From positions 177,649 through 241,648 of the forward strand of contig JBAZXO010000001.1 in assembly GCA_041659785.1 (NCBI GenBank): DNA of 64,000 nucleotides, in the 5' to 3' direction. This stretch comes from Minisyncoccota bacterium. GTDB lineage: Bacteria > Patescibacteriota > Minisyncoccia > Phycocordibacterales > UBA9973. Positions 2,465-46,454 of this stretch are shown here, piece by piece; position 1 is the stretch's first letter; each line of letters starts with the position of its first letter. The position numbers and the translations under genes are program-made. The notes under the pieces were generated by a model. The model did no database searches and had not been told where the DNA came from. It worked only from the letters and a program-made list of their open reading frames with translations.

Positions 2465-2504
2465 ATTATACTATATTTTTTTACAAAAAAGTCAATAATT
2501 TTAA

Positions 2505-2552
2505 CAAAAAAAAAGAGGGCCCGATGTAGATATGGAGCCCTCTGTCACCGAA
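2505..2552 (-). terminator. intrinsic terminator for the minus-strand small ORF
   Basis: On the minus strand the stem AGAGGGC...GCCCTCT is followed by a T9 run. On the plus strand this reads A9 then the stem. Confidence 0.55.
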
Positions 2553-2563
2553 ATGGTGTGAGA

Positions 2564-2797
2564 TTATTTCTTGTTGGCTTGTTTCTTTTCTTGAAGAGCA
2601 TGATTGATATGAAGCTTAAGATGCCACAAAAAGATGTCAAATTGTGCCAGAGCAACTATATCACCTTTTTTTTCCAAAAATTTATTGATAAAATCTTCGG
2701 TAGCTTCAGGTGGTAAGCGGTGTTTATTGTCTTTCCAGATTCTTTTAAAATTAAACTCAATAGCACCAGCCTGAGCTGCTGTTATTTCCTGGGGCAT
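2564..2797 (-). CDS. hypothetical protein, 77 aa
   Basis: ORF with a downstream terminator. No motif recognised. Confidence 0.35.
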   Translation of the reverse strand: MPQEITAAQAGAIEFNFKRIWKDNKHRLPPEATEDFINKFLEKKGDIVALAQFDIFLWHLKLHINHALQEKKQANKK

Positions 2798-2953
2798 TTC
2801 ATCTCCTTAAGAGAATTAGGGTGACGGAATTGTCACCAAGTTGAAAAGGACGTTCTCCCTTTTTCTACACTTAAACTTGATTTATGTCAAGCTTTATCAC
2901 TTCTCATTCAACGAATATTTGCAAAAAATCTTTTATATGGTAATCTTGTTCAT

Positions 2954-3187
2954 ATGGCAAAAACAGTAATAGAAGTGAAGAAAAATCCAAACGAAAACAA
3001 CGCGAGCGTATTGCGTCGTTTTTCTCGTAGAATTCAAGAATCCGGTATTGTCCGCAAGGTCAAAGGCGCTCGCTACAACTTGAGAAAAGAATCCAAACTT
3101 AAAGTTAAAAAAAGTGCTCTAAAGAGAATGGGCCGAAGAAAGGAAATCGAGAAACTCAAAAAGCTCGGTAAGATGGTAACAAAGTAA
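2954..3187 (+). CDS. rpsU: 30S ribosomal protein bS21
   Basis: 77 aa, very basic. MAKTVIEVKKNP...LRRFSRR...KRMGRRKEIEK matches the S21 pattern. Confidence 0.8.
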   Translation: MAKTVIEVKKNPNENNASVLRRFSRRIQESGIVRKVKGARYNLRKESKLKVKKSALKRMGRRKEIEKLKKLGKMVTK

Positions 3188-3192
3188 ACCAT

Positions 3193-3645
3193 ATGGAGGA
3201 AAAACTTTCTATGATAAACAAAACAAAAACGAAAACTCCTCGTCTACCTTTTCTTGATCTTAAAAATGACATTTTAGGGAAAAACTATTCCCTCTCTATC
3301 GCTTTCGTAGATGAAAAAAAATCTAGAGAAATAAATAAGGAATACAGAAACAAAGATAAATCTACAAATATTTTATCTTTTCTTTTACATAAAAACGAAG
3401 GTGAAATAATTATCTGCCCACCCGTCGTAAAGCGTGAAGCTAAAAATTTTGAAAGAAATTTCGACCAATTTATGGGATTTTTAGTTATCCACGGAATGCT
3501 TCATTTGAAAGGACACGAACATAGTAGTACAATGGAGAGACTAGAAGAAAAATATGATAAGAAATATTTCAGTGGGCATAGACGTGGGATCATCCACGAC
3601 ACGAGTCGTGGTAGGAGAATTTCTAAAAGGAGAAAAAAATCCTAA
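3193..3645 (+). CDS. ybeY: rRNA maturation endoribonuclease YbeY
   Basis: HGMLHLKGHEH zinc-binding motif (H-x3-H-x5-H), about 150 aa. The non-conserved C-terminal tail overlaps the ftsA start. Confidence 0.8.
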   Translation: MEEKLSMINKTKTKTPRLPFLDLKNDILGKNYSLSIAFVDEKKSREINKEYRNKDKSTNILSFLLHKNEGEIIICPPVVKREAKNFERNFDQFMGFLVIHGMLHLKGHEHSSTMERLEEKYDKKYFSGHRRGIIHDTSRGRRISKRRKKS

Positions 3646-4717
3646 GATTATTGGTATGGGTGAAAGTATCACTCTAGGCATGAGGCACGGCTACGTCGTA
3701 AACTCTCCACTGGTCACTGCTTCAGTGAGAAATGCAGTTGCGCTCGCAGAAAAAACTTCTGGCTTAAAAATAAAAAAATGTTTTGTTTCACTTTCTGGCA
3801 CCACGCTCAAAAGTGAGATAAGCGGAGGGAGCACTATCGTTTCAAAAGCTGACGGTGAAGTGACCTCTCTCGATGTGAACAAAGCACTTCAGGATTGTGA
3901 GGACAATTTAAGCTTGGGAAATAAAAAAATTATCCATATATACCCCATTTCTTACCGACTCGATGGGAAAGAAGTCTTGGGTAGATTAGAGGGTATGCGC
4001 GGAACAAAGCTTGAGATTAAAGCACTTTTTGTCACTTATTCCGTTGTACACTTAGAGGATTTACTAGGGGCAATAGCAGAAGCTGGAGTAGAAACTATAG
4101 ACGTGATCGCCTCTCCACTCGCCATCAGCAACATCGCTCTAACCGAAAGACAAAAGATCGTAGGCGTAGCACTCGTAGACATCGGAGACCAGACGACATC
4201 TCTTTCTGTTTTTGAAAATGGATTACTCATGTCAGTCGCTACTTTCTCTATAGGTTCGACTGAAATAACAAATGACATTGCACTCGGTTTTAAAATTTCC
4301 TTAGAAAAAGCAGAAGCTCTAAAGCTTGGAAATAGCACAGAAGAATTTTCAAAGAAAAAACTCGACGAAATCATCGAAGCACGACTATGTGACATCTTTG
4401 AATCAATAGAAAATAATTTAAAGAAAATAAAAAGGTCCGAGCTCTTACCGGCCGGTATAGTATTCGTGGGTGGTGGTGCAAATACTCCAATGCTCGCAGA
4501 ATTATCTAAATCTACACTCAAGCTCCCCTCTAGTATTGGTGCAACAGAAATCTTTGGCAACACAAAAACGAAACTTCGTGACCCAGCTTATTTTAATGCA
4601 ATTGGTTTACTCACCTCCGGAAAAGATACAGGTGGCTATGAAGGCAACTCTTTCAAAAAACTCTTAAAAGACCTAGAAAACACAATAAAATCAAGCATAA
4701 AACAGCTGATGCCATAA
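3554..4717 (+). CDS. ftsA: cell division protein FtsA (actin-like ATPase)
   Basis: The N-terminal VGIDVGSSTTRVVVGE phosphate-1 motif is present. Length is 387 aa. It sits immediately upstream of ftsZ. Confidence 0.9.
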   Translation: MIRNISVGIDVGSSTTRVVVGEFLKGEKNPKIIGMGESITLGMRHGYVVNSPLVTASVRNAVALAEKTSGLKIKKCFVSLSGTTLKSEISGGSTIVSKADGEVTSLDVNKALQDCEDNLSLGNKKIIHIYPISYRLDGKEVLGRLEGMRGTKLEIKALFVTYSVVHLEDLLGAIAEAGVETIDVIASPLAISNIALTERQKIVGVALVDIGDQTTSLSVFENGLLMSVATFSIGSTEITNDIALGFKISLEKAEALKLGNSTEEFSKKKLDEIIEARLCDIFESIENNLKKIKRSELLPAGIVFVGGGANTPMLAELSKSTLKLPSSIGATEIFGNTKTKLRDPAYFNAIGLLTSGKDTGGYEGNSFKKLLKDLENTIKSSIKQLMP

Positions 4718-4865
4718 TATTAGTTTTTAGATACTAGAAGCTAGTAAACTAGAACCCAGAAGCTAGAACCTAATACCTAATCTATGGGTTTGCTTTTTTT
4801 TGCTCTAGTGCTAGTATGATTTCATATAAGTTAAATCTTTAATAAGCCTACGGGCAAGTAAAATT

Positions 4866-6071
4866 ATGCCAAAAATAAATCAAGAAATAGAGAGTTTCGC
4901 TCGAATCATGGTCATCGGAATCGGTGGATCAGGAAAGAATGCAGTCAACCATATGATAAACTCTAAGGTCAAAGGTGTGTCTTTTATTTGTATGAACACT
5001 GACACGCAAGACTTACATCACTCTCTTGCTGAGAAAAAAATTCACATTGGAAAAAATTTAACTAAAGGTCTCGGCGCAGGTATGGATCCAGAAATTGGAA
5101 AGAAGGCTGCCGAAGAAACAAAGTCTGAAATACAAGATGTCATCAAAGGTGCAGACATGATCTTCCTCGCTTGCGGAATGGGTGGAGGTACTGGAACAGG
5201 TGCAGCACCAATCGTCGCTCGTGCAGCGAGAGAACAAGGCATCCTCACTGTCGCTGTCACCACCAAGCCATTTTTCTTCGAAGGAAATCACCGTATGAAA
5301 ATAGCTGAGAAAGGTATTGAAGAATTAGCTAAAGAAGTAGATGCAATAATCATCATTCCAAACGACAAATTGCTTCAATTAGCTGAACAAAACACCAATT
5401 TTAAAGACGCTTTCGTAAAATGCGATGACGTATTACGTCAAGCAGTAGAAGGGATTTCTGACCTTATCACCACTCCTGGCGTCATAAATGTAGACTTTGC
5501 AGACATTAAGGCCATTATGGCAAATGCTGGTAGCGCCCTTATGGGTATCGGTAGTGCTTCTGGTGAAAAGCGTGCAGAAAAGGCAGCCTTGGGAGCTATC
5601 AATTCCCCTCTTCTCGAGGTTTCTATTCATGGTGCTAAAGGAGTGCTCTTCGCTATCTCTGGAGGAGACGACCTAACTATCAATGAAATCCAAGAAGCTG
5701 CAAAAATAATCACTGAATCAATCGACAAAGATGCGAAGGTAATCTTCGGAACAATTCGTGATGAGAAATTAAAAAAGGGAGAAATCAAGGTCACCGTCAT
5801 TGCAACCTCCTTCCCTGCTGATATGCCTCGCAAGAATCTTTTTAGCGCAGCTACTACAGGCCTAATGAAAGATGAAACTCCTGTTGCTGTAAAAAAAGAA
5901 ATACATAATACCATCCAGAACAATATGCAGGGCGTAAATCAAAATAATAATTTGAGCAATAATGACTTCATAAAGAAAATGGATAAAAAGGAAGTCAAAG
6001 AAGAAATTATCGAAGATGATGGCGATGACTGGAGCGCTGTTCCAGCCTTCCTCCGAAGAACTAAAAAATAA
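4866..6071 (+). CDS. ftsZ: cell division GTPase FtsZ
   Basis: Tubulin signature GGGTGTGAAPIVA, the N-terminal GIGGSG motif, and a disordered C-terminal linker. Confidence 0.95.
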   Translation: MPKINQEIESFARIMVIGIGGSGKNAVNHMINSKVKGVSFICMNTDTQDLHHSLAEKKIHIGKNLTKGLGAGMDPEIGKKAAEETKSEIQDVIKGADMIFLACGMGGGTGTGAAPIVARAAREQGILTVAVTTKPFFFEGNHRMKIAEKGIEELAKEVDAIIIIPNDKLLQLAEQNTNFKDAFVKCDDVLRQAVEGISDLITTPGVINVDFADIKAIMANAGSALMGIGSASGEKRAEKAALGAINSPLLEVSIHGAKGVLFAISGGDDLTINEIQEAAKIITESIDKDAKVIFGTIRDEKLKKGEIKVTVIATSFPADMPRKNLFSAATTGLMKDETPVAVKKEIHNTIQNNMQGVNQNNNLSNNDFIKKMDKKEVKEEIIEDDGDDWSAVPAFLRRTKK

Positions 6072-6111
6072 AATAGCCAAAAGCTTGACGGCTAGTGTAT
6101 AATAAACGTAT

Positions 6112-7065
6112 ATGACATACGACCTAATAATTATTGGAGGTGGGCCTGCCGGTGTTGCAGCGGCTGTTTATGCTGCTCGTAAAAGGTTAAAAACACTTTT
6201 TATTACTTCCGAATGGGGCGGGCAAAGCATCGTTTCAGAAAAGATTTTCAACTGGATTGGCACACCAGCCATCTCGGGCAATGACCTAGCAGAAAATTTA
6301 AAGAGTCACGTGTTAGCCAATGCAATAAATGATAAAAACCCAGATTCTACATTAAAAATAAAAGAAGGAGAAAAAGTAACTTCCCTGTCAGGTGTTGGAA
6401 ACCCGACAGAAGGATTTTCAGTAAAAATAGAATCAGGTGAAGAATTTTTAACTAAAACAATTTTAATAGCTACAGGTAGTGTGCGCAGAAAGCTTATTGC
6501 AAAAAATGCAGATGAACTTGAACACAAAGGCCTCACTTATTGTGCTTCTTGCGACGGGCCACTTTTTGAAAATATGGATGTGGCTGTAATTGGTGGAGGA
6601 AATGCCGCATTCGAAACAGCCGCTCAGCTACTAGCCTATTGTAAGTCTGTCATCCTCATAAACAGAAGCGACACTTTCCGGGCAGATGAAATTACTGTGG
6701 AGAGAGTTTCTAAAAATCCTAAAATATCAATAGTAAAAAATGTGGATATTTTAGAGATACAAGGCAGTAAATTTGTAGAAGGCTTAATTTATCAGGACAG
6801 AACTACAAAAGTACAAAAAGAATTAAAAGTATCTGGAATTTTTGTTGAAATTGGACAGATTGCAAATACTGATTTTGTAAAAGAATTAGTACCCCTAGAT
6901 GCAGTAGGGAAAATAAAAATTGATGCTTGGTCACAAAAAACTGAGACGAAAGGCATCTGGGCCGCTGGAGATTGTACCAATATCCTCTACCACCAGAACA
7001 ACATTGCTGCTGGTGATGCTGTGCGTGCTGTGGAAGATATCTATCTAGCAATTCACACAAAATAA
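6112..7065 (+). CDS. trxB: thioredoxin-disulfide reductase (FAD/NAD(P) oxidoreductase)
   Basis: N-terminal GGGPAG FAD motif, redox-active CASCDG (CxxC), and a second GGGNAA dinucleotide motif. Confidence 0.85.
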   Translation: MTYDLIIIGGGPAGVAAAVYAARKRLKTLFITSEWGGQSIVSEKIFNWIGTPAISGNDLAENLKSHVLANAINDKNPDSTLKIKEGEKVTSLSGVGNPTEGFSVKIESGEEFLTKTILIATGSVRRKLIAKNADELEHKGLTYCASCDGPLFENMDVAVIGGGNAAFETAAQLLAYCKSVILINRSDTFRADEITVERVSKNPKISIVKNVDILEIQGSKFVEGLIYQDRTTKVQKELKVSGIFVEIGQIANTDFVKELVPLDAVGKIKIDAWSQKTETKGIWAAGDCTNILYHQNNIAAGDAVRAVEDIYLAIHTK

Positions 7066-7082
7066 ATTTCCTAAACAAAAAA

Positions 7083-7111
7083 ACAGCCCTCACAAAAAAG
7101 GCTGTTTTTTT
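7083..7111 (+). terminator. rho-independent terminator after trxB
   Basis: ACAGCC...GGCTGT stem followed by T7. Confidence 0.6.
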
Positions 7112-7132
7112 ATTTTAATTTAGAAATTATTT

Positions 7133-7195
7133 TTAACTTGAACATGTGCAATCACTGATTGGATTACCACAACCAGGACATTTTGGTTCATCCAT
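7133..7195 (-). CDS. candidate 20-aa Cys-rich zinc-knuckle peptide (MDEPKCPGCGNPISDCTCSS)
   Basis: Short ORF with a CPxCG knuckle plus CxC. Four Cys in 20 residues is unusual for AT-rich DNA. There is no other support. Confidence 0.2.
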   Translation of the reverse strand: MDEPKCPGCGNPISDCTCSS

Positions 7196-7299
7196 ATTCT
7201 TTGAGAAATTAGATGATAATTGTATAAAAAATACGTTGGACTAGAATGTATTTATTGTACATTTAAATTATACCACACTACTATGTATTATACCATTTG

Positions 7300-7371
7300 T
7301 GACCCTACTGGGAATCGCACCCAGATTACCAGCTTGAAAAGCTGATGTCCTAACTATTAGACGATAGGGCC
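7300..7371 (-). tRNA. tRNA-Glu (anticodon UUC)
   Basis: Manual cloverleaf. Acceptor GGCCCTA/TAGGGTC, anticodon stem TCAGC/GCTGG, loop TTTTCAA (anticodon TTC). The T-arm is CTGGG-TGCGATT-CCCAG, with an unusual G at position 55. Confidence 0.75.
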
Positions 7372-7431
7372 AATGTCTTTTATCTTATCTTATTTTTGAA
7401 AAAACTGCAAAAAATGCTAGATTAAAATAAT

Positions 7432-7518
7432 GGAGACGTGGCTGAGTGGTTGAAGGCACCAGTTTCGAAAACTGGCATCGGGGCAACTCGATCGTGAGTT
7501 CAAATCTCACCGTCTCCG
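7432..7518 (+). tRNA. tRNA-Ser (anticodon CGA), class II with long variable arm
   Basis: Acceptor GGAGACG/CGTCTCC. Anticodon stem CCAGT/ACTGG with loop TTCGAAA. Long variable arm. T-arm GTGAG-TTCAAAT-CTCAC. Confidence 0.8.
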
Positions 7519-7531
7519 CAAAAATATGACA

Positions 7532-7936
7532 TTAAATTTTTATTCCTAGTTTATGTTTAATCCTTAAAACTACCTCATCTAAAGATGTGTTGGCTTTTGT
7601 TAAATATTCATAATTTTTCCCAAGGCCGGCAAAACTATTTTGAGCAACCATATCACCAGGGTCACTTACGTTCGTGAGGACAATGACTTTTGCGTTTACT
7701 CCCCATGGATCTTCACTTAATTTTTTAATTACTTCAAAACCATCCATCTTAGGCATCAAAATATCGAGCAATATTAAGTCGGGGTGTCTTTTAAGGGCAA
7801 ATTCTAAACCATCAAGACCATTAAAACTTTCAATAACATCAAACTTTTCTGTGTCCAACTTTTCAGTAAGAGTATCAGCTAAGATTCTTTCGTCTTCAAC
7901 AATTAAAATTAAGAATTTCTTATTAGGTTCATCCAT
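7532..7936 (-). CDS. orphan single-domain response regulator (CheY-like receiver)
   Basis: ILIVEDE...DLILLDILMPKMDGFEV receiver signature with the phospho-acceptor Asp. No kinase lies adjacent. Confidence 0.8.
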   Translation of the reverse strand: MDEPNKKFLILIVEDERILADTLTEKLDTEKFDVIESFNGLDGLEFALKRHPDLILLDILMPKMDGFEVIKKLSEDPWGVNAKVIVLTNVSDPGDMVAQNSFAGLGKNYEYLTKANTSLDEVVLRIKHKLGIKI

Positions 7937-7999
7937 GCATCAATTATACCACTAAAAGATAAATTGAAAAACAAAGGGCTTGGTGTATAATCGAGAAAC

Positions 8000-15519: not shown

Positions 15520-15533
15520 ATACAACACAAAAC

Positions 15534-15569
15534 AAAATCCGTCGCTCAGAAGCGACGGATTTTGTTTTG
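15534..15569. terminator. bidirectional intrinsic terminator
   Basis: 13-bp stem AAAATCCGTCGCT-caga-AGCGACGGATTTT flanked by T-rich runs on both strands. Confidence 0.75.
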
Positions 15570-15571
15570 TG

Positions 15572-15643
15572 TGCCTGGGGGCAGAATCGCACTGCCGACC
15601 TATCCCTCTTCAGGGGAGAGCTCTACTACTGAGCTACCCAGGC
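15572..15643 (-). tRNA. tRNA-Phe (anticodon GAA)
   Basis: Acceptor GCCTGGG/CCCAGGC. D-arm GCTC-AGTAGTA-GAGC. Anticodon loop CTGAAGA, with a C-U mismatch at the stem top. T-arm GGCAG-TGCGATT-CTGCC, with G at position 55. Confidence 0.7.
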
Positions 15644-15927: not shown

Positions 15928-15948
15928 ATTTATAATTTAGCATAAAAC

Positions 15949-15981
15949 ATAAAAAAAACCAATTCCAAATTGGTTTTTTTT
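15949..15981. terminator. bidirectional intrinsic terminator
   Basis: A8-ACCAATT-cca-AATTGGT-T8. Confidence 0.7.
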
Positions 15982-16000
15982 ATGTTAGATTGTAGCTATA

Positions 16001-16072
16001 GCCCTCGTAGTTCAATGGATAGAACGAATTCGTCCTAAGAATGAAATGTAGGTTCGATTCCTGCCGAGGGCA
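16001..16072 (+). tRNA. tRNA-Arg (anticodon CCU)
   Basis: Acceptor GCCCTCG/CGAGGGC. D-arm GTTC-AATGGATA-GAAC. Anticodon loop GTCCTAA. T-arm GTAGG-TTCGATT-CCTGC. Confidence 0.7.
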
Positions 16073-24725: not shown

Positions 24726-26564
24726 TTATTCCCCCGTACGCATCATCTTCAAAAATACATCTTGAGGGATATTTACTCGTCCCCTTTCTTTCATTTTCTT
24801 CTTACCTTTCTTTTGTTTCTCGCGAAGTTTCATTTTACGAGTGATGTCACCTCCATACATATGCTGAGTGACATCTTTTTTCATACCAGAAAGAGTGCGT
24901 GAAGAAATAATTCTACCAAGAGCTTGGCCTTGCACCTTCAAAGTAAACATCTGACGAGGTAATATCTTTGCGAGCTTTTCCACTGCTTCTTCTGCTTCAC
25001 TCTCTGCCCTCTTTCTAGAAACAACCCTAGAGAAAGCTGGCACAATTTCATCAGCTACTAAGATATCGAGTCTAGTCACATCCGCTACTCGCATATCACC
25101 TATCTCATAAGAAATAGACCCATAACCAGAAGAAGTGCTTTTTAATTCATCAAAGAAATTTCGCATCAATTCACGCAGTGGCATCTGTACAGAGATAGTC
25201 GAACGATTGTCTCCGAAGTTTTCCGTATCACCCACTTCTCCCTCATGATCAAAAAGAAGCTGCATAATATTTCCGACATATTGCACTGGAGTAATTATTT
25301 TTAATTTTACCCATGGTTCAAAGACTGTATCTATGTTTCCATCATCTGGAAAATGGTATGGGGAATAAACTTTCTCTTTTTTACCATTTTTCATTAAAAC
25401 TTCGTAAGTGATAGAAGGCATCGTAATCACTAATTCCAGATTAAATTCCCTTTTTAATCTCTCAGTAATAATTTCCAAATGAAGCATTCCAAGAAATCCA
25501 CATCTAAATCCTCGGCCCAAGGATCCGCTCGATTCTTCTTCGTATGAAAAAGCTGAGTCAGAAAGTTTTAATTTTCCTAAAGAAAGTTTTAATTCTGAAA
25601 AATCATCTGCATCTTCTGGAAAAACTGAAGCCCAGACCACCGGCATTGGCTGCATGTATCCAGGGAAGGCCGGTAGTGGATTTTTCGCCATTGTGATAGT
25701 ATCTCCGACTGATGCAATGCCGGGCTTTTTTATTCCAGTCACAATGTAGCCCGTATCTCCAGGAGAAAGAAAATCACGCGGAGTTTCTTCGGGAGAAAAA
25801 GTCCCCACTTCAAGAGCAGTAAATTTTTCCCCAGAAACTGCAAAGACTAAACTGTCACCCTTAGAAACCTTACCATCAAATACTCGCACAAAAACTATCA
25901 CCCCTCGATGATTTGAATATTTAAAATCAAAAACGAGAGCACGTAAATTATTGTCACCTTGATATTTTTCAATTGGTGCTGGAATACGTTTTACGACTTC
26001 TTGTAAGAGTTCTTCTACCCCTTCTCCCGTACGCCCTGAGACCAAAAGTATATCTTCTGAACTACAATCTAATAAGTTCATCACCTCTTCCTTTATGTCA
26101 TTTATCCGAGCTAGAGGAGAATCAATTTTAGAGAGTACAGGGATGATTTTAAGCCCTCCCTGACGCGCCATAGCAAGCGTAGTAAGCGTTTGAGCCTGGA
26201 CTCCCTGAGTTGAGTCTACCAGCAAAATAGACCCTTCTACGGCCTTTAATGCTCGAGAAACTTCATAGGAAAAGTCTATGTGCCCCGGGGTATCTATCAA
26301 ATTAAGTACAAAAACCTCACCCCCAGCCCCTCTCCTGTCAGGAGAGGGTGGCCAAAGGTCGGGTGAGGTATATTCCATTCGGACTGGCTGCATCTTGATA
26401 GTGATACCCCTTTCGCGTTCGATGTCCATAGAGTCTAGTACTTGGTCACGCATTTTACGCACCTCTATTGTGTGTGTAATCTCAAGCATTCTGTCCGCCA
26501 AGGTACTCTTGCCGTGGTCGATGTGCGCTATGATTGAAAAATTTCTAATGTGTTTTAAATCCAT
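24726..26564 (-). CDS. lepA: elongation factor 4 (LepA) carrying an in-frame insert of about 12 aa encoded by a GC-rich palindromic element
   Basis: G-domain motifs AHIDHGKST, DTPGH and SKID. LepA-specific C-terminal domain. Length 612 aa. Confidence 0.9.
   Translation of the reverse strand: MDLKHIRNFSIIAHIDHGKSTLADRMLEITHTIEVRKMRDQVLDSMDIERERGITIKMQPVRMEYTSPDLWPPSPDRRGAGGEVFVLNLIDTPGHIDFSYEVSRALKAVEGSILLVDSTQGVQAQTLTTLAMARQGGLKIIPVLSKIDSPLARINDIKEEVMNLLDCSSEDILLVSGRTGEGVEELLQEVVKRIPAPIEKYQGDNNLRALVFDFKYSNHRGVIVFVRVFDGKVSKGDSLVFAVSGEKFTALEVGTFSPEETPRDFLSPGDTGYIVTGIKKPGIASVGDTITMAKNPLPAFPGYMQPMPVVWASVFPEDADDFSELKLSLGKLKLSDSAFSYEEESSGSLGRGFRCGFLGMLHLEIITERLKREFNLELVITMPSITYEVLMKNGKKEKVYSPYHFPDDGNIDTVFEPWVKLKIITPVQYVGNIMQLLFDHEGEVGDTENFGDNRSTISVQMPLRELMRNFFDELKSTSSGYGSISYEIGDMRVADVTRLDILVADEIVPAFSRVVSRKRAESEAEEAVEKLAKILPRQMFTLKVQGQALGRIISSRTLSGMKKDVTQHMYGGDITRKMKLREKQKKGKKKMKERGRVNIPQDVFLKMMRTGE
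26315..26368. repeat. GC-rich nested inverted-repeat element (copy 1), in-frame within lepA
   Basis: Outer arms cctcaccc/gggtgagg and inner 10-bp arms ccctctcctg/caggagaggg. The outer and inner arm sequences are shared with the element at 45716-45787. Confidence 0.65.
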
Positions 26565-28397: not shown

Positions 28398-30851
28398 TTA
28401 TAATGCTGGAGCTGGGGTGGATGTAGGAGTAGGTGCTGGGTCTGGGGCTGGAGAACCACCTCCCCCACTTACTGTGGGGACTCCTCCTCCGGAAGGAGGA
28501 GAGGAAGTCGTGCTTTCCCCTCCTTGTGGAGGAGGGGTGCCTCCGCCAGACGGAGGCGGGGTGGTAGTAGTTGTTGGTGCAGGTGTAGGCGTAGAAATTA
28601 ATGCTGTGGGTGGAGGTGTATTATTTTGCAAAAATGTTTGCAACTCTGTTTCAGTCACACAGGTATTGTTAATACATATTTTATCTTTTGCATGGAAACT
28701 TCCTGCAAACACATCCCCTATCCCATTTGTAACATCTGCGAGCCATGCACCCACTTTCGTATAAACATTATTAAAGAAGGCTGTCACGAAAGATTCAGTA
28801 GCGGGTGAAATGGTCTGCCCTGAACTTAGCTGAAGGGTGCCAGAAACTGCGTTTATGTTTAGATTAAGTTCTTGTAAAGCTTTAGTTAATATTGGAATAA
28901 CACCAGTAGTATTTAGAGATTTCATTCCTTCTACATCAGTCGCTACTAATTTAGGAACTACAGTTTCGACTTCTTGAGCGATAAAACCTAAATTTTTAAT
29001 AGAACCATCTACTTCATAATTCCAATTATAAACAACTGGTCTTAACTTCATTATTGTATCTAATCCATAATTAATATCTTCAATATTTTTCTTCATTCTT
29101 ACATCTGAAGTACAAGATATAGTTCCTCCAGTAGCTAAGGTACATCCTGTGGTATTTACATCGGTAAATTTTGCAATTATAGCTCCAGTTCCAGTGCCTT
29201 TTACCTCCAAAGGAATAGTCGTACCAGTTATTCCAATACCCACATTCCCCGTACTCCCTACTTGTAATCCTGTATATGCAATATTGTAAGCTTGAGAGGC
29301 GACAGTTTGAGAAGTTGAAACAGTGAGGCTTGTGGTTGAGCCAAATGCAGTAATTGTTCCTGCATTCGTACCATCCGCAAATACGAATTGCGAACCTACC
29401 ATTGCGGAAGTGAATGTCGTACCTACACCAGTGATTGTAGTCAAAGATTGAGATGCTGTGCCTGTGCTGTATTGAGTAGGGGTGACGGAGAGGATACCAG
29501 CAGGTACAAGTGTTCCAATGCCAAGATTTCCATTAATTGTTAATTTTTGTCCTGTAAGAGATCCTGCTGTGCCTGAAAAGGTTCCATAAAGGAGAGAGTA
29601 GTTTTTGTCATTCGCAAGCGTAGTCTGAAGCACATTATTTACATAAAAAGCGTTAGAATCAATTTCATTATAACCAGCTGAATATCCTAAGGCGACATTA
29701 TTGTTTCCTGTGGAGTTTGTATAAAGAGCATTAGCACCATTCGCGGTATTATAATAACCTATAGTGTTTAAATAGAGAGATTTATAACCATTTGCGGTAT
29801 TTTCCGATCCTGTGACAAAAATAGAATCATCCATGTTAATAGCCGTACCAGTATTAGAGTAAAGAGCATCTTTGCCATTCGCAGTGTTGCCATCTCCTAT
29901 AATATTTGAATAAAGAGCATTAGCACCATTCGCGGTATTACTATCGCCACTGAATCCTATAAAACAACCAGGTTCTAAAGGATTACAAGTACGAGTTATT
30001 GAAGCGTTAGAATAAAGAGAACTTAAACCAATAGCAGTGTTATTGCCACCAGAAGTATTCGAATATAAAGCTGAGTCACCAATTGCCACGTTGGAGGAAC
30101 CTGTAGTATTACTAAAAAGTGCTTCTGTTCCGCTTGCTAAATTGGCAGAACCAGTTGTATTAGAAAATAAAGCAGACTCACCTTGTGCAATATTATACAA
30201 TCCAGTCATTGTTAAATTTCCACCATCACCAAAAAAATAATTACTTAGGGAAGGATCAGCTGTAACAATATTAACACCCGCATATTTATAAGCAGAGCCT
30301 GAAGAAATATTTATATTCCCCACAACGTCAAGTTTTTGTGAAGGAGTAGTCGTCCCGATTCCAATATTTCCATTCCCTAATACTGAAAATCTTGTTCCCC
30401 CAACTAAAGTGTAAGCTACACCAGAGTTTGCAAGGGTAATAGCATCTGTGGTCATGGAAGTATCTGAAGCAATGGCAGAAATAGTTACAGTCTGACCTGT
30501 GGTTGCTGGTATTGTAATTGTGTCTCCAACTTTAAATGTATTGGTAAATTTTGTACCTACACCCGTGACTGTGGTACCGCCAGCATCATTTGAAACTGTT
30601 CCTATTCCTGTTGTTTCTTGAGCGACTTGAAATTTCGCAGTCGGTGCATTTGTACCGATACCATAAAAAAGTGTCGTTGGGTTTACATAAATTTGATCAA
30701 CCGCGCAGTTTGTATCTGTGGGACCACAAGTAGGATTCAATGTCTCTCCTGGTGCAAAGCGGGTACTAGGTGGAGAAGCAAAAACAAAAGTCGTGACCGT
30801 AAAAAAAGATGCAAATATAAATAACCCGATAAGAAAGAAATTTTTATGCAT
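28398..30851 (-). CDS. very large secreted tail-fibre-like protein with a peptidase-S74 intramolecular-chaperone domain and a Pro/Thr/Gly-rich C-terminus. Likely start is M27 (MHKNFF...) at 30851.
   Basis: Signal peptide. NTxxG/NTTGxxN repeats as in 22702-23979. SDVRMKKNIEDINYGLDTIMKLRPVVYNW...GFIAQEVETVVPKLV matches the S74 chaperone-of-endosialidase domain consensus (SDxRxKxNI ... GFIAQEV). Tail is TPPPSGGGTPPPQGG... Confidence 0.7.
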   Translation of the reverse strand: MHKNFFLIGLFIFASFFTVTTFVFASPPSTRFAPGETLNPTCGPTDTNCAVDQIYVNPTTLFYGIGTNAPTAKFQVAQETTGIGTVSNDAGGTTVTGVGTKFTNTFKVGDTITIPATTGQTVTISAIASDTSMTTDAITLANSGVAYTLVGGTRFSVLGNGNIGIGTTTPSQKLDVVGNINISSGSAYKYAGVNIVTADPSLSNYFFGDGGNLTMTGLYNIAQGESALFSNTTGSANLASGTEALFSNTTGSSNVAIGDSALYSNTSGGNNTAIGLSSLYSNASITRTCNPLEPGCFIGFSGDSNTANGANALYSNIIGDGNTANGKDALYSNTGTAINMDDSIFVTGSENTANGYKSLYLNTIGYYNTANGANALYTNSTGNNNVALGYSAGYNEIDSNAFYVNNVLQTTLANDKNYSLLYGTFSGTAGSLTGQKLTINGNLGIGTLVPAGILSVTPTQYSTGTASQSLTTITGVGTTFTSAMVGSQFVFADGTNAGTITAFGSTTSLTVSTSQTVASQAYNIAYTGLQVGSTGNVGIGITGTTIPLEVKGTGTGAIIAKFTDVNTTGCTLATGGTISCTSDVRMKKNIEDINYGLDTIMKLRPVVYNWNYEVDGSIKNLGFIAQEVETVVPKLVATDVEGMKSLNTTGVIPILTKALQELNLNINAVSGTLQLSSGQTISPATESFVTAFFNNVYTKVGAWLADVTNGIGDVFAGSFHAKDKICINNTCVTETELQTFLQNNTPPPTALISTPTPAPTTTTTPPPSGGGTPPPQGGESTTSSPPSGGGVPTVSGGGGSPAPDPAPTPTSTPAPAL

Positions 30852-30888
30852 TTTTTGAATTGTTAATTTTTTGAGATACATATATTTA

Positions 30889-32649
30889 TTATAACAAAAA
30901 ATTCTGATTAATGATCCCCCTCTTTGCATTAATTATACCAGAAGTATAAACAGTAGTATATGATTCATCTGGATTCTTGCGGTCTATGGTAATGTGATAT
31001 TCGCCTTTAGCAAGCAGACAATAATAATGACCATATTTATCAGCAACACGGTGGAATATCTCTTGCGGAAAACCTTTTCTAAACACGCGGACAATAGCAA
31101 AGGACATTGGTGTTTTGGTTTTAGCATCCATAATCGTCCCTAGAGTTTTAGGTTTTAAAAATAGCCGAATGATAAGAAGTAAAACGTAAATAGCAATAAT
31201 TATAAGATTCAACTTATTAGGATTAATAGCCAACAGAACAGTAGCAGAAATAAATCCAAGATAAAAAAGATTGGTTGAAATAATATTAATTATCCTTGCG
31301 TTTTTTGAATAAAATACCATGAGTTTCTTGTCACGTTTTGCAAACTCATTCCAGTCGAAGGCAAGGGGGTCCATTGGGATGTTTTTAGTGATGACTGTAT
31401 TTTCATTTAGAATAACTTCTCCACCGAAGTATAGATTGTCATAAAGTTCATCTCTAGTCTTTCCAGCAAGTTTTATGGAAGGTGCTTGATAGTTTGTTTT
31501 TCTTGTTGTAATTTCGTACGGACCTGGAGGTGCCAGAAAACCAAAACGTCCATCTAAGTCTGTTATGGCTGTGCCCACTTCTTTTCCTTCTTTATTTTTT
31601 AGAACTACATAGACTGGATCGAGTGGTTGCTTGGTAACACTATCATAAACCGTCCCCCAGGGTGCACGTTTTTTCCTTAAACCAAGTGATACCAGAAGAA
31701 CACTCCAAAGACGAAAAATTAAAAGGGGTACATCGGCAAAAGAAAATACATTCCCAGCAAGGGAAATTGCGACGACAGAACTTCCACCAAGAACACCGAC
31801 ACCGGAGACAGTTTTTGAAGCGATGGAACCAGCAGAAGTATTAACAAATCTAACAACATTTTTTCTTATTGTCCTAGTTGTTTTATCTACAAGAGTTACT
31901 CCTTTTTTAAAAGACTCAAAAATTGTTGTAGTAACTGAAGGTAATGATTGAGTGCCGCCACTGACTCCACCCCCAACATTTCCCGTAAATCCTGGGGTTG
32001 GTGTTGGACTCGGAATCGGAGTAGGTGTGGGATTAGGAGTCGGGGTTGGGGTTGGGGTAGGAGTTGGTGTTGGTGTAGGAGTTGGTGTCGGGGTCGGGGT
32101 TGGGGTTGGGGTTGGTGTAGGATGACCTCCCCCACCACTTTCGCTAGGACGTAAACTAAATGGTTTCCAATCAGTTTGCAAATAGAAATTATCAGTTCCG
32201 CATGAATTATCATCTAAACAATTAAAACTAATCCATCCTAAATTTTGACTCCATGCATAACCATGAAAAATTCCTAAATTATCAATAGTAACTCCTCCTC
32301 GTGTGGGCGCAAAATTAATCCAACCAGTATTTTGCCCCCAAGCATAACCAGCGAGATGACCTTCCGCATCATTAGTCACACCTCCATTCGTTGGTGCTAA
32401 ATTGATCCACCCAGCTAATTCACTCCATGCATTACCTGTAAGTCTAGAATCTGTAACATGTACATTTCCTAAAACAAGAGCAAAATTAATTTTCCCGACA
32501 TTACTATCTAAACCTTTTGCGTATTTATGAACACCATCTATCGTCCCATCAGTAGCGGAAGCATATGCAAAAAGTGGTACTGAAAACACAAAAAGACCTA
32601 AAAGTAACAAATTTTTTAGATATAAACTAAAAATTTTTTTATTTAACAT
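30889..32649 (-). CDS. secreted multi-domain protein: three GWINF/GYAW repeats, a (PT)n linker, transmembrane segments and two carboxypeptidase-regulatory-like (DxDGxF) domains
   Basis: Signal peptide. Repeats GWINLAPTNGGVT..GYAWGQNTGWINF x3. A PTPTPT... linker of about 35 aa. LKNKEGKEVGTAITDLDGRFGF motif. Confidence 0.55.
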   Translation of the reverse strand: MLNKKIFSLYLKNLLLLGLFVFSVPLFAYASATDGTIDGVHKYAKGLDSNVGKINFALVLGNVHVTDSRLTGNAWSELAGWINLAPTNGGVTNDAEGHLAGYAWGQNTGWINFAPTRGGVTIDNLGIFHGYAWSQNLGWISFNCLDDNSCGTDNFYLQTDWKPFSLRPSESGGGGHPTPTPTPTPTPTPTPTPTPTPTPTPTPTPNPTPTPIPSPTPTPGFTGNVGGGVSGGTQSLPSVTTTIFESFKKGVTLVDKTTRTIRKNVVRFVNTSAGSIASKTVSGVGVLGGSSVVAISLAGNVFSFADVPLLIFRLWSVLLVSLGLRKKRAPWGTVYDSVTKQPLDPVYVVLKNKEGKEVGTAITDLDGRFGFLAPPGPYEITTRKTNYQAPSIKLAGKTRDELYDNLYFGGEVILNENTVITKNIPMDPLAFDWNEFAKRDKKLMVFYSKNARIINIISTNLFYLGFISATVLLAINPNKLNLIIIAIYVLLLIIRLFLKPKTLGTIMDAKTKTPMSFAIVRVFRKGFPQEIFHRVADKYGHYYCLLAKGEYHITIDRKNPDESYTTVYTSGIINAKRGIINQNFLL

Positions 32650-32744: not shown

Positions 32745-34211
32745 TTACTCATCTAAAATTTCAAAATCATTACCATCTTCTGGTATAACCTTTTTCCGAC
32801 GAATAAAATAAACCGCGCCTGCCGAAGCTCCTATAAAAATAACTGAGGTAATTATGGGTAAATATGAATTACTGGGACTATTTTCTGGTGTATTACTTTG
32901 GATTGCTGAAGAAGTCAAATCCTCTGGAATAGAACTAAGATTAGTATCAATAACCCCTCCTAACCTCCCCTTATCAAGGGAGGAAAAAGATCCAGAACGT
33001 CCCCCTGATAAGGGGGATTTAGGGGGTTGCACTACTGCCAGGTCTTGCCTAACGGTATAATCAAATACAACTCCTCCTTCTCTATTTATTAATTTTAAAG
33101 TATCTTTATCGGTAATTGAAAAATTTGTAATTCTAGGAGAAATAATCATCTTCTTTTTTGATACCAAAATTGTATTCTTTGGAATCATAAAACTTTTTCC
33201 ATCACTTACTAAAAACCAATTTGAAATGTCAGCATTGTAAAGAGTATTATTCGAAAGCTCTACAAAAAAATCTTTTTCATCACCCACGCTAGATATCGAG
33301 ATGTCTGCTCCAACTATTTTTATATTAATTTCATCTATAGCATCCGGAATGTCCGAATAATTATTAGAATAATAAGAAAGAGACACAACATATTCTCCAG
33401 GGTAAAAATATGCATGAGTAAATTTACTACTATTTATCATTTGTATTTCTTTGGAATCTCCATCACCAAAATTCCAAAAATACTTTCCGTAATGCAACTG
33501 CTCTCCGCCATATCCTAATGTCGTAGCATCAAAAGGTAGTGGTAAATTAACAAAACCAAAAGTCTTGCTTATAATTTTAGTTTTAATTTTAGGTATTTCG
33601 GATACTTTCTTCTGTTCTGGTATTGTATTTGAACTTAAAGGAACAGAAGAAATTGGATTTCCGCCACCAGTTGTAGAAGTTGATGTAGTAGATGTTCCAC
33701 CATTTATTTCTCCAGGTGTGGGAGTAGACCCTACCCAAGAGCCTGATATTTTTTGTAAAGAATTTCCATCACCCGCTCCGCCTAAGGATGTTGTATAAGA
33801 AACTTCATCAATAACACTTCCATCTTGATCTAAAATTTTTAATGTTGTACCAGTATTATTTAAACTTGTAAAACCTGTGTCATACACAGAGCCAGCAAAA
33901 GAAGAGTGCTCTGCCAAGAAAGTATCTTTGTCTCCAGTAAAAATTACATAACCATTAGCCGGAATAGAGAAATTCACTTCACCGTTTATTGTTCTGTTCC
34001 CTCCTCCATCATAAAACCTCCATTTCGAAGCATCGACAGAAACTTCGTTAGATCCAGAATTGTAAATTTCTACCCATTCTCTACTTTTTCCGTTTATCGA
34101 ATCAGAACCCGATAAATCATAGTTTATTTCATTGATACTTAAACCAGCAAAAGCTAAACGACACGCTGAAAAGAAAAAAACCAACACAAAAACTGAAATT
34201 GATTTCTTCAT
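32745..34211 (-). CDS. secreted protein with lamin-tail-domain (LTD)-like modules and a C-terminal membrane anchor
   Basis: Signal peptide. INEINYD...EWVEIYNSG...VDASKWRFYDGGG matches the LTD pattern (INE...EWVEL.N.G...L.GW.L.D). A C-terminal hydrophobic helix is followed by RRKK. Confidence 0.55.
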   Translation of the reverse strand: MKKSISVFVLVFFFSACRLAFAGLSINEINYDLSGSDSINGKSREWVEIYNSGSNEVSVDASKWRFYDGGGNRTINGEVNFSIPANGYVIFTGDKDTFLAEHSSFAGSVYDTGFTSLNNTGTTLKILDQDGSVIDEVSYTTSLGGAGDGNSLQKISGSWVGSTPTPGEINGGTSTTSTSTTGGGNPISSVPLSSNTIPEQKKVSEIPKIKTKIISKTFGFVNLPLPFDATTLGYGGEQLHYGKYFWNFGDGDSKEIQMINSSKFTHAYFYPGEYVVSLSYYSNNYSDIPDAIDEINIKIVGADISISSVGDEKDFFVELSNNTLYNADISNWFLVSDGKSFMIPKNTILVSKKKMIISPRITNFSITDKDTLKLINREGGVVFDYTVRQDLAVVQPPKSPLSGGRSGSFSSLDKGRLGGVIDTNLSSIPEDLTSSAIQSNTPENSPSNSYLPIITSVIFIGASAGAVYFIRRKKVIPEDGNDFEILDE

Positions 34212-45155: not shown

Positions 45156-45695
45156 TTAATTATAGAGAGACATCGCTTTTTCTTTACTCTCAGAAAAAAC
45201 AGTTTCTACTATTTCGGCGACTTTTTTAGATAATTTTTTAAGTGTTTCTAATTCTGGTTTCTTAAATTCACCAAGCAAAAAATTTAATACGGCCTTCTCC
45301 CCTGTTGGCTTTTTTAATTTTCCAGATGGTGTCGCGGGTGATATCCCAACTCTAATACGCAAAAATTCTTCACTCTTTACAGATTTGATGACAGAAGCGA
45401 GGCCATTGTGTCCACCCGAAGAACGATTAAAGGAAATTTTAATCTTCCCTAAAGGCAAATCAATGTCATCATATATAACTATCAGATCTTTCAAATCTTT
45501 ATTTGTCTTTATCAAAGGAGCGACAGCTTTCCCAGAATTATTCATAAAGGTATCTGGAGTAAGAAATTTAATTTTCTTTTTTTCTCCTTCTTTTTCGAGT
45601 TTCTTCTCAACCATGCCCACTAAAATACGCCCGGTATTATGCCTTGTGTTTTCGTATTCTTTTCCAGGATTTCCTAAGCCAACTACTAATTTCAT
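45156..45695 (-). CDS. pth: peptidyl-tRNA hydrolase
   Basis: MKLVVGLGNPGKEYENTRHNTG N-terminal signature. Length 179 aa. Confidence 0.9.
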   Translation of the reverse strand: MKLVVGLGNPGKEYENTRHNTGRILVGMVEKKLEKEGEKKKIKFLTPDTFMNNSGKAVAPLIKTNKDLKDLIVIYDDIDLPLGKIKISFNRSSGGHNGLASVIKSVKSEEFLRIRVGISPATPSGKLKKPTGEKAVLNFLLGEFKKPELETLKKLSKKVAEIVETVFSESKEKAMSLYN

Positions 45696-45715
45696 AAATA
45701 CATAGTAACATAGAA

Positions 45716-45787
45716 CCTCACCCCTGTCTGCCTAAGGCAGACTTCCCCTCTCCAAACAAAATGCTTGGAGAGGGGTTAGGGGTGAGG
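45716..45787. repeat. GC-rich nested inverted-repeat element (copy 2), intergenic
   Basis: Outer arms cctcacccc/ggggtgagg. Inner hairpins gtctgcc-taa-ggcagac and cccctctcc-13 nt-ggagagggg. Confidence 0.65.
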
Positions 45788-45848
45788 TAATTTATTACAA
45801 AACAAATTCCCCTACCCTGTCAAGGATTTTTTATGTTATATTGTAGCA

Positions 45849-46454
45849 ATGGAAGACATTAAACAAGATATGCCTATAAAGGCAATAGAGAAAACACAAG
45901 AAAAGACAAAGATGCAGTCATTTTGGGAGCTTGTACGCTTTGCTTTTATCGCATTAATAATAGTAGTCCCAATACGCGTATTAATAGCTGAACCATTCAT
46001 TGTGTCTGGAAGTTCTATGGTCCCCACCTTTACAAATGGGGATTATTTAATAATAGACAAAATATCTTATAGATTGAGCGATCCTAAAAGGGATGACGTA
46101 GTAGTCTTCCGATACCCAGGTGACACAACAAAATTCTTTATTAAAAGAATTATTGGTCTACCAAATGAAACAGTAGATATAAAAGGTAATGATGTAACGA
46201 TAACCAAAGGAGACAAAACTACCACACTCAAAATTGACCAGCCTTTCGTAAAAAATCCTGCAAACAATGAAACACATTTTGAATTAAAGGGAGATGAGTA
46301 TTTCGTAATGGGCGACAATAGAGGCGCTAGCTCTGACTCAAGATATTGGGGAGCAGTAAAAAGAAATCTCTTAACGGGTAGAGCTTTCTTACGCTTGTTA
46401 CCAATAAATAAAATAGATGTATTGCCTGGCAATTATAAACAAATAGAACAATAA
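45849..46454 (+). CDS. lepB: signal peptidase I
   Basis: Catalytic SGSSMVPTF (Ser) and IKRIIGLPNE (Lys box) motifs, and GDNRGASSDSRYWG. Confidence 0.85.
   Translation: MEDIKQDMPIKAIEKTQEKTKMQSFWELVRFAFIALIIVVPIRVLIAEPFIVSGSSMVPTFTNGDYLIIDKISYRLSDPKRDDVVVFRYPGDTTKFFIKRIIGLPNETVDIKGNDVTITKGDKTTTLKIDQPFVKNPANNETHFELKGDEYFVMGDNRGASSDSRYWGAVKRNLLTGRAFLRLLPINKIDVLPGNYKQIEQ

Follow-up and report, generated by a model that had tools for sequence, protein, structure and literature searches.

How does a GC-rich nested palindrome come to lie in frame within the gene for a translation elongation factor, and to what family of repeats does it belong? The question is raised by a stretch of 64,000 nucleotides (nt) of contig JBAZXO010000001.1 – hereafter the window, meaning this whole stretch – from the metagenome-assembled genome (MAG) of a Candidatus Paceibacterota bacterium (candidate phyla radiation, CPR; Patescibacteria; 36% G+C). 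Here lepA, which encodes elongation factor 4 (EF4), carries a palindrome of 56 nt that a sequence-only reading of the window had likened to the Rickettsia palindromic elements (RPEs). The element is a member of a pan-bacterial, G/C-rich, intrastrand-triplex repeat family, known in Escherichia coli as BoxC, PIT or TMECO. We further consider it probable (at roughly 0.7) that the 56-nt sequence is a compact, non-autonomous copy of this family, tolerated as an in-frame loop extension and, with lower confidence, made or moved by a process acting at the level of DNA. Loci outside the window are cited by handle (L followed by a number).

Results

A complete palindrome lies in frame in lepA

The product of the host gene (Table 1) matches a Candidatus Paceibacterota 'translation elongation factor 4' at 100% identity and solved EF4 structures with E = 1.7e-173. 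Within the gene, positions 26314-26369 form a complete nested palindrome with A...T termini and a G+C content of 68%: the G+C fraction, taken over 50 nt, peaks here at 0.68, compared to 0.36 across the whole window. On the plus strand the letters are A-CCTCACCCCC-AG-CCCCTCTCC-TGTCA-GGAGAGGG-T-GGCC-AAA-GGTC-GGGTGAGG-T. Outer arms (CCTCACCC, 26315-26322; GGGTGAGG, 26361-26368) enclose an inner hairpin with arms of 10 bp (CCCTCTCCTG, 26328-26337; CAGGAGAGGG, 26339-26348) plus an extra mini-hairpin of 4 bp (26350-26360) that the sequence-only reading had not recorded. Two of the constituent words are more frequent in the window than expected: CCTCACCCC occurs three times (0.10 expected) and CCCTCTCC four times (0.8 expected). 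The predicted fold reaches -35.5 kcal/mol (z -3.4) in mRNA sense and -35.4 kcal/mol (z -5.2) in antisense, and both strands fold better than all of 200 shuffled sequences. In the stem of the mini-hairpin (hairpin 2), changes between copies are compensatory (GACC/GGTC, GTCC/GGAC, GCCC/GGGC, GTCTGCC/GGCAGAC).

The element leaves the reading frame intact, is free of stop codons and lengthens the loop by about 13 residues, so that LepA is predicted to contain the insert-derived peptide TSPDLWPPSPDRRGAGGEV; four of the six reading frames of the element are open. In an alignment with Thermus thermophilus EF4 (PDB 5imq/4w2e) a gap of 12 residues falls exactly at the insert. An AlphaFold2 (AF2) model – built from 64 aligned close homologues, with a mean pLDDT of 53.7, and used for strand-coil-strand topology only – shows, at low confidence, a coil (residues 67-83) that connects strands 61-66 and 84-93. 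In terms of the standard GTPase fold, the insertion falls in the turn of the beta2-beta3 hairpin of the G domain, directly ahead of the DTPGH (G3) motif. The sequence-only reading had described a GC-rich nested palindrome that keeps the frame, in a loop about 12 residues longer than the canonical one. Each part of this description is borne out: the open reading frame (ORF) is intact at 612 amino acids (aa), the extra length agrees with both the gap against EF4 structures and the 13 fewer residues of the nearest relative (below), and the RNA folding that it had proposed gives about -35 kcal/mol on either strand, beneath every one of the shuffles.

The element has the layout of BoxC/PIT/TMECO repeats

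The family has been described by Bachellier, by Hoyne and Maher, and by Holder et al. 2015 (PMC4666352). TMECO sequences of E. coli consist of a pyrimidine block, a loop, a purine block, a loop of 3 nt and a purine third strand, as in CCCTCTCCCTGTGGGAGAGGGCCGGGGTGAGGGC (PMC4666352), and can be summarised as CCCTCTCC-loop-GGAGAGGG-NNN-GGGGTGAGG. Read in mRNA sense, the lepA copy is CCCTCTCC-TGACA-GGAGAGGG-GCT-GGGGGTGAGG: the TMECO layout in nearly the same letters. On comparison with 23 TMECO sequences it matches the G/C-rich triplex-motif (TM) consensus CCCTCTCCC ... GGGAGAGGG ... GGGGTGAGGG. Its blocks of 10 nt contain one mismatch in total, and the third block is reverse-Hoogsteen-compatible under the rule that it pairs with the purine block antiparallel by G.G, A.A or T.A.

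The motif in E. coli K-12 is 'always located intergenically', has no known mobiliser and no link to transposons, phages or plasmids, is associated with local hypervariability and is without promoter or terminator activity; its triplex formed in vitro and was undetectable in vivo (PMC4666352). The lepA element shares with BoxC/PIT/TMECO the same blocks in the same order, the occurrence of single, tandem and inverted-pair copies, and presence in many phyla. Unlike E. coli BoxC, it is found in frame inside essential genes of a 36% G+C CPR genome – the lepA copy and a related motif at 32953-33028 both lie inside ORFs and not between genes – and its form is compact and closed, and includes the mini-hairpin and a complementary CCTCACCC tail.

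One loop of LepA has gained inserts repeatedly

The closest 120 homologues of the window LepA (81-92% identical) were aligned. A short loop of eight residues, RMEY-x-x-G-E/Q-x-Y/F-I/V-LNLIDTPGH, is present in 74 of the 120, while 40 have five or more extra residues at exactly the beta2-beta3 loop; these inserts belong to several unrelated sequence types, add between 5 and 32 residues in the relatives and are unrelated in peptide sequence. The nearest LepA (P0002, 92% identical) is without the insert: its loop, EY-STGNE-KYI, is 13 residues shorter, and the DNA encoding it (GAA TAC TCT ACC GGT AAT GAA AAG TAT) is non-palindromic. The empty, non-palindromic site in so close a relative argues for insertion and against an ancestral loop.

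At other loci the site is filled, and in either orientation. In L003 and L004 (LepA 85% identical to that of the window) the element ACCTCACCCCCAGCCCCTCTCCTGTCAGGAGAGGGTGGCCAAAGGCCGGGTGAGGT stands right after the same Tyr codon, corresponds to the plus strand of the window and is inverted relative to lepA, so that it encodes TSPPAPLLSGEGGQRPGEV; the two orientations specify different peptides, PDLWPPSPDRRGAGGE and PPAPLLSGEGGQRPGE. When reverse-complemented, the L003 element is identical to the window copy at 55 of 56 nt, compared to 68-84% for the lepA DNA flanking it and 32-61% for third codon positions. L003 (ENA) and L004 (JGI) are independent assemblies with identical lepA sequence. L125 (LepA 87% identical) has a variant of the element with a loop 2 nt longer, placed two codons later, in which the reading phase is partly different and rejoins at GGT GAG GT. 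L002 (82% identical) has the window orientation with decayed arms and a compensatory change in hairpin 2, from GACC...GGCC to GGCT...AGCC. In L126, L127 and L128 the DNA of the loop folds at -35 to -58 kcal/mol, with hairpins of the CCCCTCC/GGAGGGG type.

On a neighbor-joining tree of LepA (a rough tree, with the loop masked) insert-bearing tips are scattered, and at least 22 gain or loss events are needed to explain them; that the closest relative is empty while more distant ones carry the element is a point independent of the tree. Together these data show that the beta2-beta3 loop of Paceibacterota LepA has gained such elements repeatedly, in several sequence types and in both orientations. 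The sequence-only reading had tied its claim to the loop being variable in length among orthologues, to the DNA behind it and to further copies elsewhere, and on all three counts the evidence agrees with it. No loop of equal length is conserved (the nearest relative is itself among the 74 with a short one), relatives that bear an insert have palindromic encoding DNA, and further copies turn up in the window itself, in additional CPR genes and in bacteria at large.

Insertions into LepA are not confined to this loop. Further sites in relatives (alignment columns 318-335 and 520-580) contain palindrome-like peptides such as KETISDVGRQDFGRPTSE, SDVGRPxxGRPTS and NPSTGSGQAGK, which suggests that several small repeat families colonise CPR genes. 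In L220 (6144-8210, minus; Paceibacterota) a single LepA has GC-rich in-frame inserts at three places: the beta2-beta3 loop has gained 26 aa, the linker that joins the G domain to domain II contains TSPPAPLLTGEGGQRPGEV, and a later domain contains NPSTSSGQAGKK. A class-I tRNA synthetase gene near lepA in Paceibacterota (probably that for leucyl-tRNA synthetase, LeuRS, by a tRNA-synt_1_2 match) has a NUDIX match between two tRNA-synt_1 matches at all five related loci (L002 1-392, L003 1417-4392, L125 1279-4257, L127 1432-4287, L128 1742-4627); the NUDIX match may mark an inserted domain, bearing in mind that a list of matches is no domain architecture.

Copies occur across phyla and in frame in other CPR genes

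A scan with CCTCACCCCNNNCCCCTCTCC of one genome per species gave at least 120 loci and at least 151 matches, in nearly every bacterial phylum; the matches listed range in G+C from 0.33 to 0.73 and include isolates and other CPR lineages. By our own estimate, a pattern of 18 nt would be matched by chance about 10^2 times in 596 Gb if all of it were GC-rich. Since such a pattern is not negligibly rare, reliance was placed on the downstream complementary block and on multi-copy loci, and not on raw counts. The block, GGAGAGGGG, follows the 18-nt core in almost all genome matches listed, which are thus not chance matches. Scanning viral contigs with CCTCACCCCNNNCCCCTCTCC also gave at least 120 loci, with up to 7 copies in 4 kb among the matches listed, and a subfamily-specific scan of metagenomes with GGAGAGGGTGGCCAAAGG again at least 120. 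Repeat units are single, tandem, arranged as inverted pairs, or in the compact closed form found in lepA. This 56-nt compact form (CCCTCACCCCCAGCCCCTCTCCC-loop-GGGAGAGGGTGGCCAAAGGCCGGGTGAGGG) is found with hardly any change in a viral contig and in soil contigs of medium GC (L148, L193, L283), and the 56-nt sequence recurs in different genes and lineages with 53-55 positions identical. A family that is shared across phyla, and has nearly identical form in E. coli and CPR, needs to be accounted for, whether by horizontal spread or by a common mobiliser. In some viral contigs from IMG/VR (L296, L259, L326) the repeat core is densely arrayed: as many as 7 copies, spaced about 72-75 nt apart, lie within about 1.1 kb.

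Low-GC copies with A...T termini are found in frame in other CPR genes, in both orientations: in the gene for RNase R (L142), in that for tRNA-dihydrouridine synthase (Dus) of a Nomurabacteria MAG (L050), in that for a membrane protein (L205), and at a second site in LepA, namely the L220 linker from the G domain to domain II. The RNase R of L142 (2260-4224, plus; CPR) in fact has two in-frame inserts, one of them of the 'PLKSPLSGG...' type, and the two belong to different triplex-type families: TSPGLWPPSPDRRGAGGEV precedes the cold-shock domain and NPLKSPLSGGNHLPPLIRGGQEG lies within the RNB domain. In seven of eight CPR copies the phase is ACC TCA CCC ... GGT GAG GTN, which reads T-S-P...G-E-V. 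A direct repeat of 9 bp, GGTAGAAAA, on both sides of the L205 copy (~271-326) is the sole clear candidate for a target-site duplication.

Other repeats in the window

The sequence-only reading had placed a second element in the spacer between pth (45156-45695, minus) and lepB (45849-46454, plus), and one is indeed there, at 45715-45788. It consists of the same blocks as the lepA copy but with a longer second hairpin, is co-oriented with the reverse complement of that copy, and has a predicted fold of -53 to -58 kcal/mol (z about -9). A scan for promoters and terminators around it gave nothing tied to the element. Against Rfam, the whole window gave only tRNAs at the gathering threshold, and a permissive search with both copies gave only sub-threshold matches to eukaryotic snoRNA and miRNA hairpins, which were treated as chance.

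Our own motif finder, which applies reverse-Hoogsteen rules, detected five triplex motifs in the window, where Markov simulations give about 0.1. The five are spread over four loci, of which three lie within ORFs. In all, the 64 kb hold two copies of the lepA-element sequence type and two related motifs; related loci of 20 kb hold one each. The first related motif, at 32953-33028, reads CCCCTCC-TAA-CCTCCCC-loop-GGGAGG ... CCCCC-loop-GGGGG-ATTTA-GGGGG; the orthologue of its 488-aa host protein (LTD by Pfam) in L001 is without the corresponding peptide, with net gaps of 12 aa. The second is the weaker repeat at 28477-28541, which resembles the LepA insert of L128 and lies inside the P/G-rich C-terminal tail of an 843-aa Peptidase_S74 ORF (28398-30929, minus).

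That ORF and a neighbor of 586 aa, with which it overlaps by ~40 nt, make up a pair of large surface-protein genes (28398-32649, minus). Both contain long (TP)n and P/G-rich low-complexity tracts, and the orthologous region of L001 is a single ORF of 1673 aa. Elsewhere in the window are two perfect AT-rich palindromes, unrelated in sequence to the GC-rich elements: one at 15525-15572 (22-nt arms) abuts a tRNA gene (15572-15643, minus), and the other, at 15946-15986 (19-nt arms), lies ~15 nt upstream of a second (16001-16072, plus).

Table 1. Coordinates of the lepA element, its parts, its host gene and the other triplex-type repeats of the window.
Feature	Position	Strand	Remarks
lepA (EF4), 612 aa, intact; host gene of the element	24726..26564	-	ORF and homology
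Complete 56-nt compact element	26314..26369	-	read in frame as TSPDLWPPSPDRRGAGGE(V)
Left outer arm / pyrimidine tail CCTCACCCCC	26315..26324	+	pairs with 26361-26368; mirror repeat of the Y block
Y block CCCCTCTCC, 5' arm of hairpin 1	26327..26335	+	
R block GGAGAGGG, 3' arm of hairpin 1	26341..26348	+	
Mini-hairpin 2, GGCC-AAA-GGTC	26350..26360	+	module T-GGCCAAAGGCC recurs across phyla
Right outer arm GGGTGAGG	26361..26368	+	
Purine third strand of the triplex motif, GGGGGTGAGG on the mRNA-sense strand	26315-26324		comparison with the TMECO table
Class II triplex-motif unit, ACCCTCTCC-TGACA-GGAGAGGG-GCT-GGGGGTGAGGT	26314..26349	-	motif finder; layout of E. coli TMECO
Second, intergenic copy, pth/lepB spacer	45715..45788	+	CCTCACCCC, 7-bp hairpin 2, CCCCTCTCC-loop-GGAGAGGGG-TTA-GGGGTGAGG
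Inverted pair of a different triplex-type motif	32953..33028	-	in frame in 488-aa LTD-domain ORF (32745-34211); encodes PPKSPLSGGRSGSFSSLDKGRLGG
Weaker triplex-type inverted repeat, CTCCTCCTCC-GGAA-GGAGGAG-AGGAAG ...	28477..28541	+	motif-finder match 28481-28507; family membership uncertain

DUF559 genes between inverted repeat units

In L085 (Bacteroidota, Prolixibacteraceae MAG; 2013-5573, plus) two inverted repeat units flank a DUF559 domain, and the resulting cassette is in frame in the C-terminal specificity domain of a Type ISP restriction-modification enzyme. A DUF559 cassette with inverted triplex-type repeat units likewise lies in frame in the LeuRS of L100 (Chitinophagaceae MAG; 5722-7983, minus); by protein search, there are relatives at this leuS position, and further ones in aroC and ispF. 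Given that the cassettes are in frame with their host genes, the endonuclease domain is predicted to be expressed as part of the host protein. Pfam detects no intein or splicing domain in the host ORFs of L085 and L100.

With the L085 domain as a tblastn query, a DUF559 ORF directly flanked by inverted repeat units was found at six of 120 genome loci and three of 120 metagenome loci (the loci listed, all 240 of them pattern-selected), whereas DUF559 was found at none of the 120 viral loci listed. Among the hosts of repeat-flanked DUF559 are a betaproteobacterium, Bacteroidota and Melainabacteria. The flanks of L174 have the same architecture in an all-G sequence variant, so that DUF559 is linked to the architecture rather than to one particular sequence. 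The DUF559 gene ycjD of E. coli K-12 (region NC_000913.3 1351204-1351760; L130) has at its 3' end a repeat-type hairpin (...NRRSPSP, then the stop), downstream of which are a partial duplicate of the 3' end of the gene and then BoxC/TMECO no. 9. The region just upstream of the ycjD start is overlapped by a separate 15-bp palindrome, CACCTCATTCTGACA / TGTCAGAATGAGGTG.

The association of repeats and DUF559 is correlative and suggests a relation like that between REPs (repetitive extragenic palindromic sequences) and RAYTs (REP-associated tyrosine transposases); no prior report of it was found in the open-access literature. A Y1 transposase was considered as mobiliser and rejected: none flanked by repeats was found, and the only Y1_Tnp gene seen (L125 20694-21350, minus) has neither triplex-type flanks nor a triplex-type motif nearby. 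That gene encodes an IS200-like Y1 transposase (PF01797, 218 aa) and lies about 9 kb from lepA.

Discussion

The feature is real; it is ordinary in its sequence family and unusual in its lifestyle, being a BoxC/triplex-type repeat that behaves in RPE-like fashion in CPR. The proposal of an RPE-like selfish repeat therefore stands in one part and not in another: the behavior agrees (copies are in frame in ORFs and patchy between relatives), the family is BoxC/PIT/TM, and that the element is 'selfish and mobile' is something we infer from its distribution.

Comparison with known repeat systems brings out the mixture. Like RPEs (Ogata et al. 2000, 2002), these are palindromic repeats in frame in unrelated housekeeping ORFs of a reduced genome, present as loop extensions and patchy between relatives; the lepA copy shows the in-frame insertion compatible with the protein fold that is typical of RPEs. 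According to the passages on RPEs in PMC10969869, however, those elements were ~150 bp in the first report and are known from Rickettsia genomes only, which sets them apart from a pan-bacterial element of 56 nt. REP/REPIN-RAYT systems offer a second parallel, with short GC-rich hairpins, a conserved single-stranded tail, singlets or inverted doublets, and – in the case of DUF559 – a candidate enzyme gene between inverted copies. REPs carry the tag GTAG or CGTC at one end of the hairpin (PMC3733652); the tag is absent from the element, whose ends are ACCTCACCC and GGGTGAGGT. Two further differences are that the flanked gene encodes a DUF559 PD-(D/E)XK endonuclease and not a Y1 transposase, and that REPs are species-specific, whereas the sequence of the lepA element is shared across phyla. 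Miniature inverted-repeat transposable elements with in-frame fusions (Nezha, ERIC, Correia; PMC10969869) are similarly small and non-coding, with occasional ORF fusions and with terminal inverted repeats, to which the outer arms of 9-10 bp (ACCTCACCC / GGGTGAGGT) correspond, but here there is no consistent target-site duplication and no related insertion-sequence transposase was identified. Finally, the DUF559 cassettes resemble inteins and homing-endonuclease insertions in lying in frame in LeuRS and the Type ISP enzyme; they differ from inteins in that neither host ORF has an intein or splicing domain by Pfam, and the lepA element encodes no enzyme.

On the reading that we prefer – a non-autonomous BoxC/PIT/TMECO copy in a permissive loop – the element would be translated as a tolerated surface-loop extension of LepA. 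Its being in frame would reflect survivorship: intergenic space is scarce, four of the six frames of the element are open, and only frame-preserving insertions in permissive loops would persist. Near-identical copies amid diverged flanks would be the outcome of recent copying, or of concerted evolution, from a conserved pool, and the hairpin- or triplex-forming ends, on single-stranded DNA, may be what the copying machinery recognises. With lower confidence, copies may be made or moved by a DNA-level process acting on such ends, and DUF559 (Vsr-like PD-(D/E)XK) endonucleases may supply that process in trans, by analogy with REP-RAYT. The opposite orientations may have arisen by in-place inversion between the inverted arms or by independent insertion; the loop could be a hotspot on account of its tolerance, or of microhomology with the GGT GAG (Gly-Glu) codons.

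A bolder version of the mechanism is possible, although we hold it rather doubtful. BoxC/triplex repeats would be non-autonomous partners of a mobile element so far unrecognised, with the DUF559 (Vsr-like) endonuclease as its enzyme; a cassette of repeat, DUF559 and inverted repeat would insert in frame into essential genes (leuS, aroC, restriction enzymes), be translated by the host as an internal domain and spread between phyla, and the CPR palindromes of 56 nt in LepA, RNase R and Dus would be miniature derivatives of it.

Several observations weigh against the preferred reading. No transposition or copying event was observed, and the density of copies is low, at one per ~20 kb locus. Inspection by eye detected no target-site duplications at the window copies, L142, L220 or L125. 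The palindrome has 56 nt but the net gain is only about 39 nt, which means that the element took the place of native loop codons or that its ends (ACC..., ...GGTGAG) match ancestral codons for T and G-E; both would be unusual for simple transposition. Translation of the insert in LepA is predicted from the frame, and the AF2 model of the protein is poor (mean pLDDT 53.7). The motif in E. coli has no link to mobile elements and no detectable triplex in vivo (PMC4666352), and tblastn finds no DUF559 either in the window (64 kb) or across the related Paceibacterota loci, which together amount to roughly 180 kb.

Much of the same evidence can be read in other ways. If the hairpin or triplex were kept by selection for a function of its own in cis and were no parasite – pausing between beta2 and beta3 during folding of the G domain, stabilisation of mRNA, or a signal in DNA replication or recombination – then identity at 55 of 56 nt next to 32-61% at flanking third positions, compensatory changes in the stem of hairpin 2 and strong predicted folds would all be expected. 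A cis function is nonetheless unlikely: the element is absent from the nearest relative and from 74 of the 120 close LepAs, occurs in either orientation (hence as different RNAs and peptides), is found as the same DNA in unrelated genes and spacers, comes near the threshold of no Rfam family, and belongs to a motif without promoter or terminator activity in E. coli (PMC4666352). Selection might instead act on the protein, the extra residues being an adaptive extension of the LepA G domain (for example a new contact with the ribosome or a partner in CPR) and the palindrome incidental. The unusual ribosomes of CPR (general knowledge; PMC12641178), the intact ORF and retention of the insert in several lineages are in keeping with this, but the patchy distribution, same-loop inserts of unrelated peptide sequence that add anything from 5 to 32 residues, and two orientations with different products (PDLWPPSPDRRGAGGE and PPAPLLSGEGGQRPGE) make adaptation an improbable explanation.

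It is also conceivable that nothing moves, and that palindromes form again and again on the spot, where template switching or hairpin-primed repair acts on the G-E codons GGT GAG, and become similar, triplex-prone sequences by convergence. The overlap of the ends with codons typical of the ancestral loop (T ... G-E), a net gain below the length of the element and the general absence of target-site duplications would follow naturally, yet 53-55 of 56 positions are shared across genes, lineages, mid-GC soil bacteria and a viral contig, which is far beyond convergence, and we give local origin little credence. So stable a hairpin in coding sequence brings to mind sequences that are removed from mRNA or bypassed by the ribosome, as in T4 gene 60 and the mitochondrial byp elements; bypassing, though, would not need inserts to be in frame and free of stops, as all those observed are, and there are no intron or ribozyme matches, so that an untranslated element is very improbable. 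As to a chimeric join from assembly or binning, the source is indeed a MAG, but the same architecture is present in many independent assemblies from different samples and pipelines, L003 and L004 have identical lepA sequences, and the family is also found in isolate genomes, E. coli K-12 included: the chance of an artefact is negligible.

Searches of the open-access literature found no prior report of in-frame palindromes in CPR, nor work after 2015 on bacterial intrastrand triplexes. The DUF559 link is a concrete hypothesis of how BoxC-type repeats propagate, testable in E. coli with ycjD; if true, it would provide a mobiliser for a repeat family (BoxC) that has been an orphan for 30 years, and a function for DUF559/YcjD. 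For the family, the lepA copy shows that a repeat thought to be strictly intergenic is able to live inside genes; for CPR, it extends protein-coding selfish palindromes beyond Rickettsia to a group in which intergenic space is scarce. Such palindromes would be a recurrent source of loop insertions in universal proteins, of relevance to alignments, phylogenies and structure prediction of CPR proteins.

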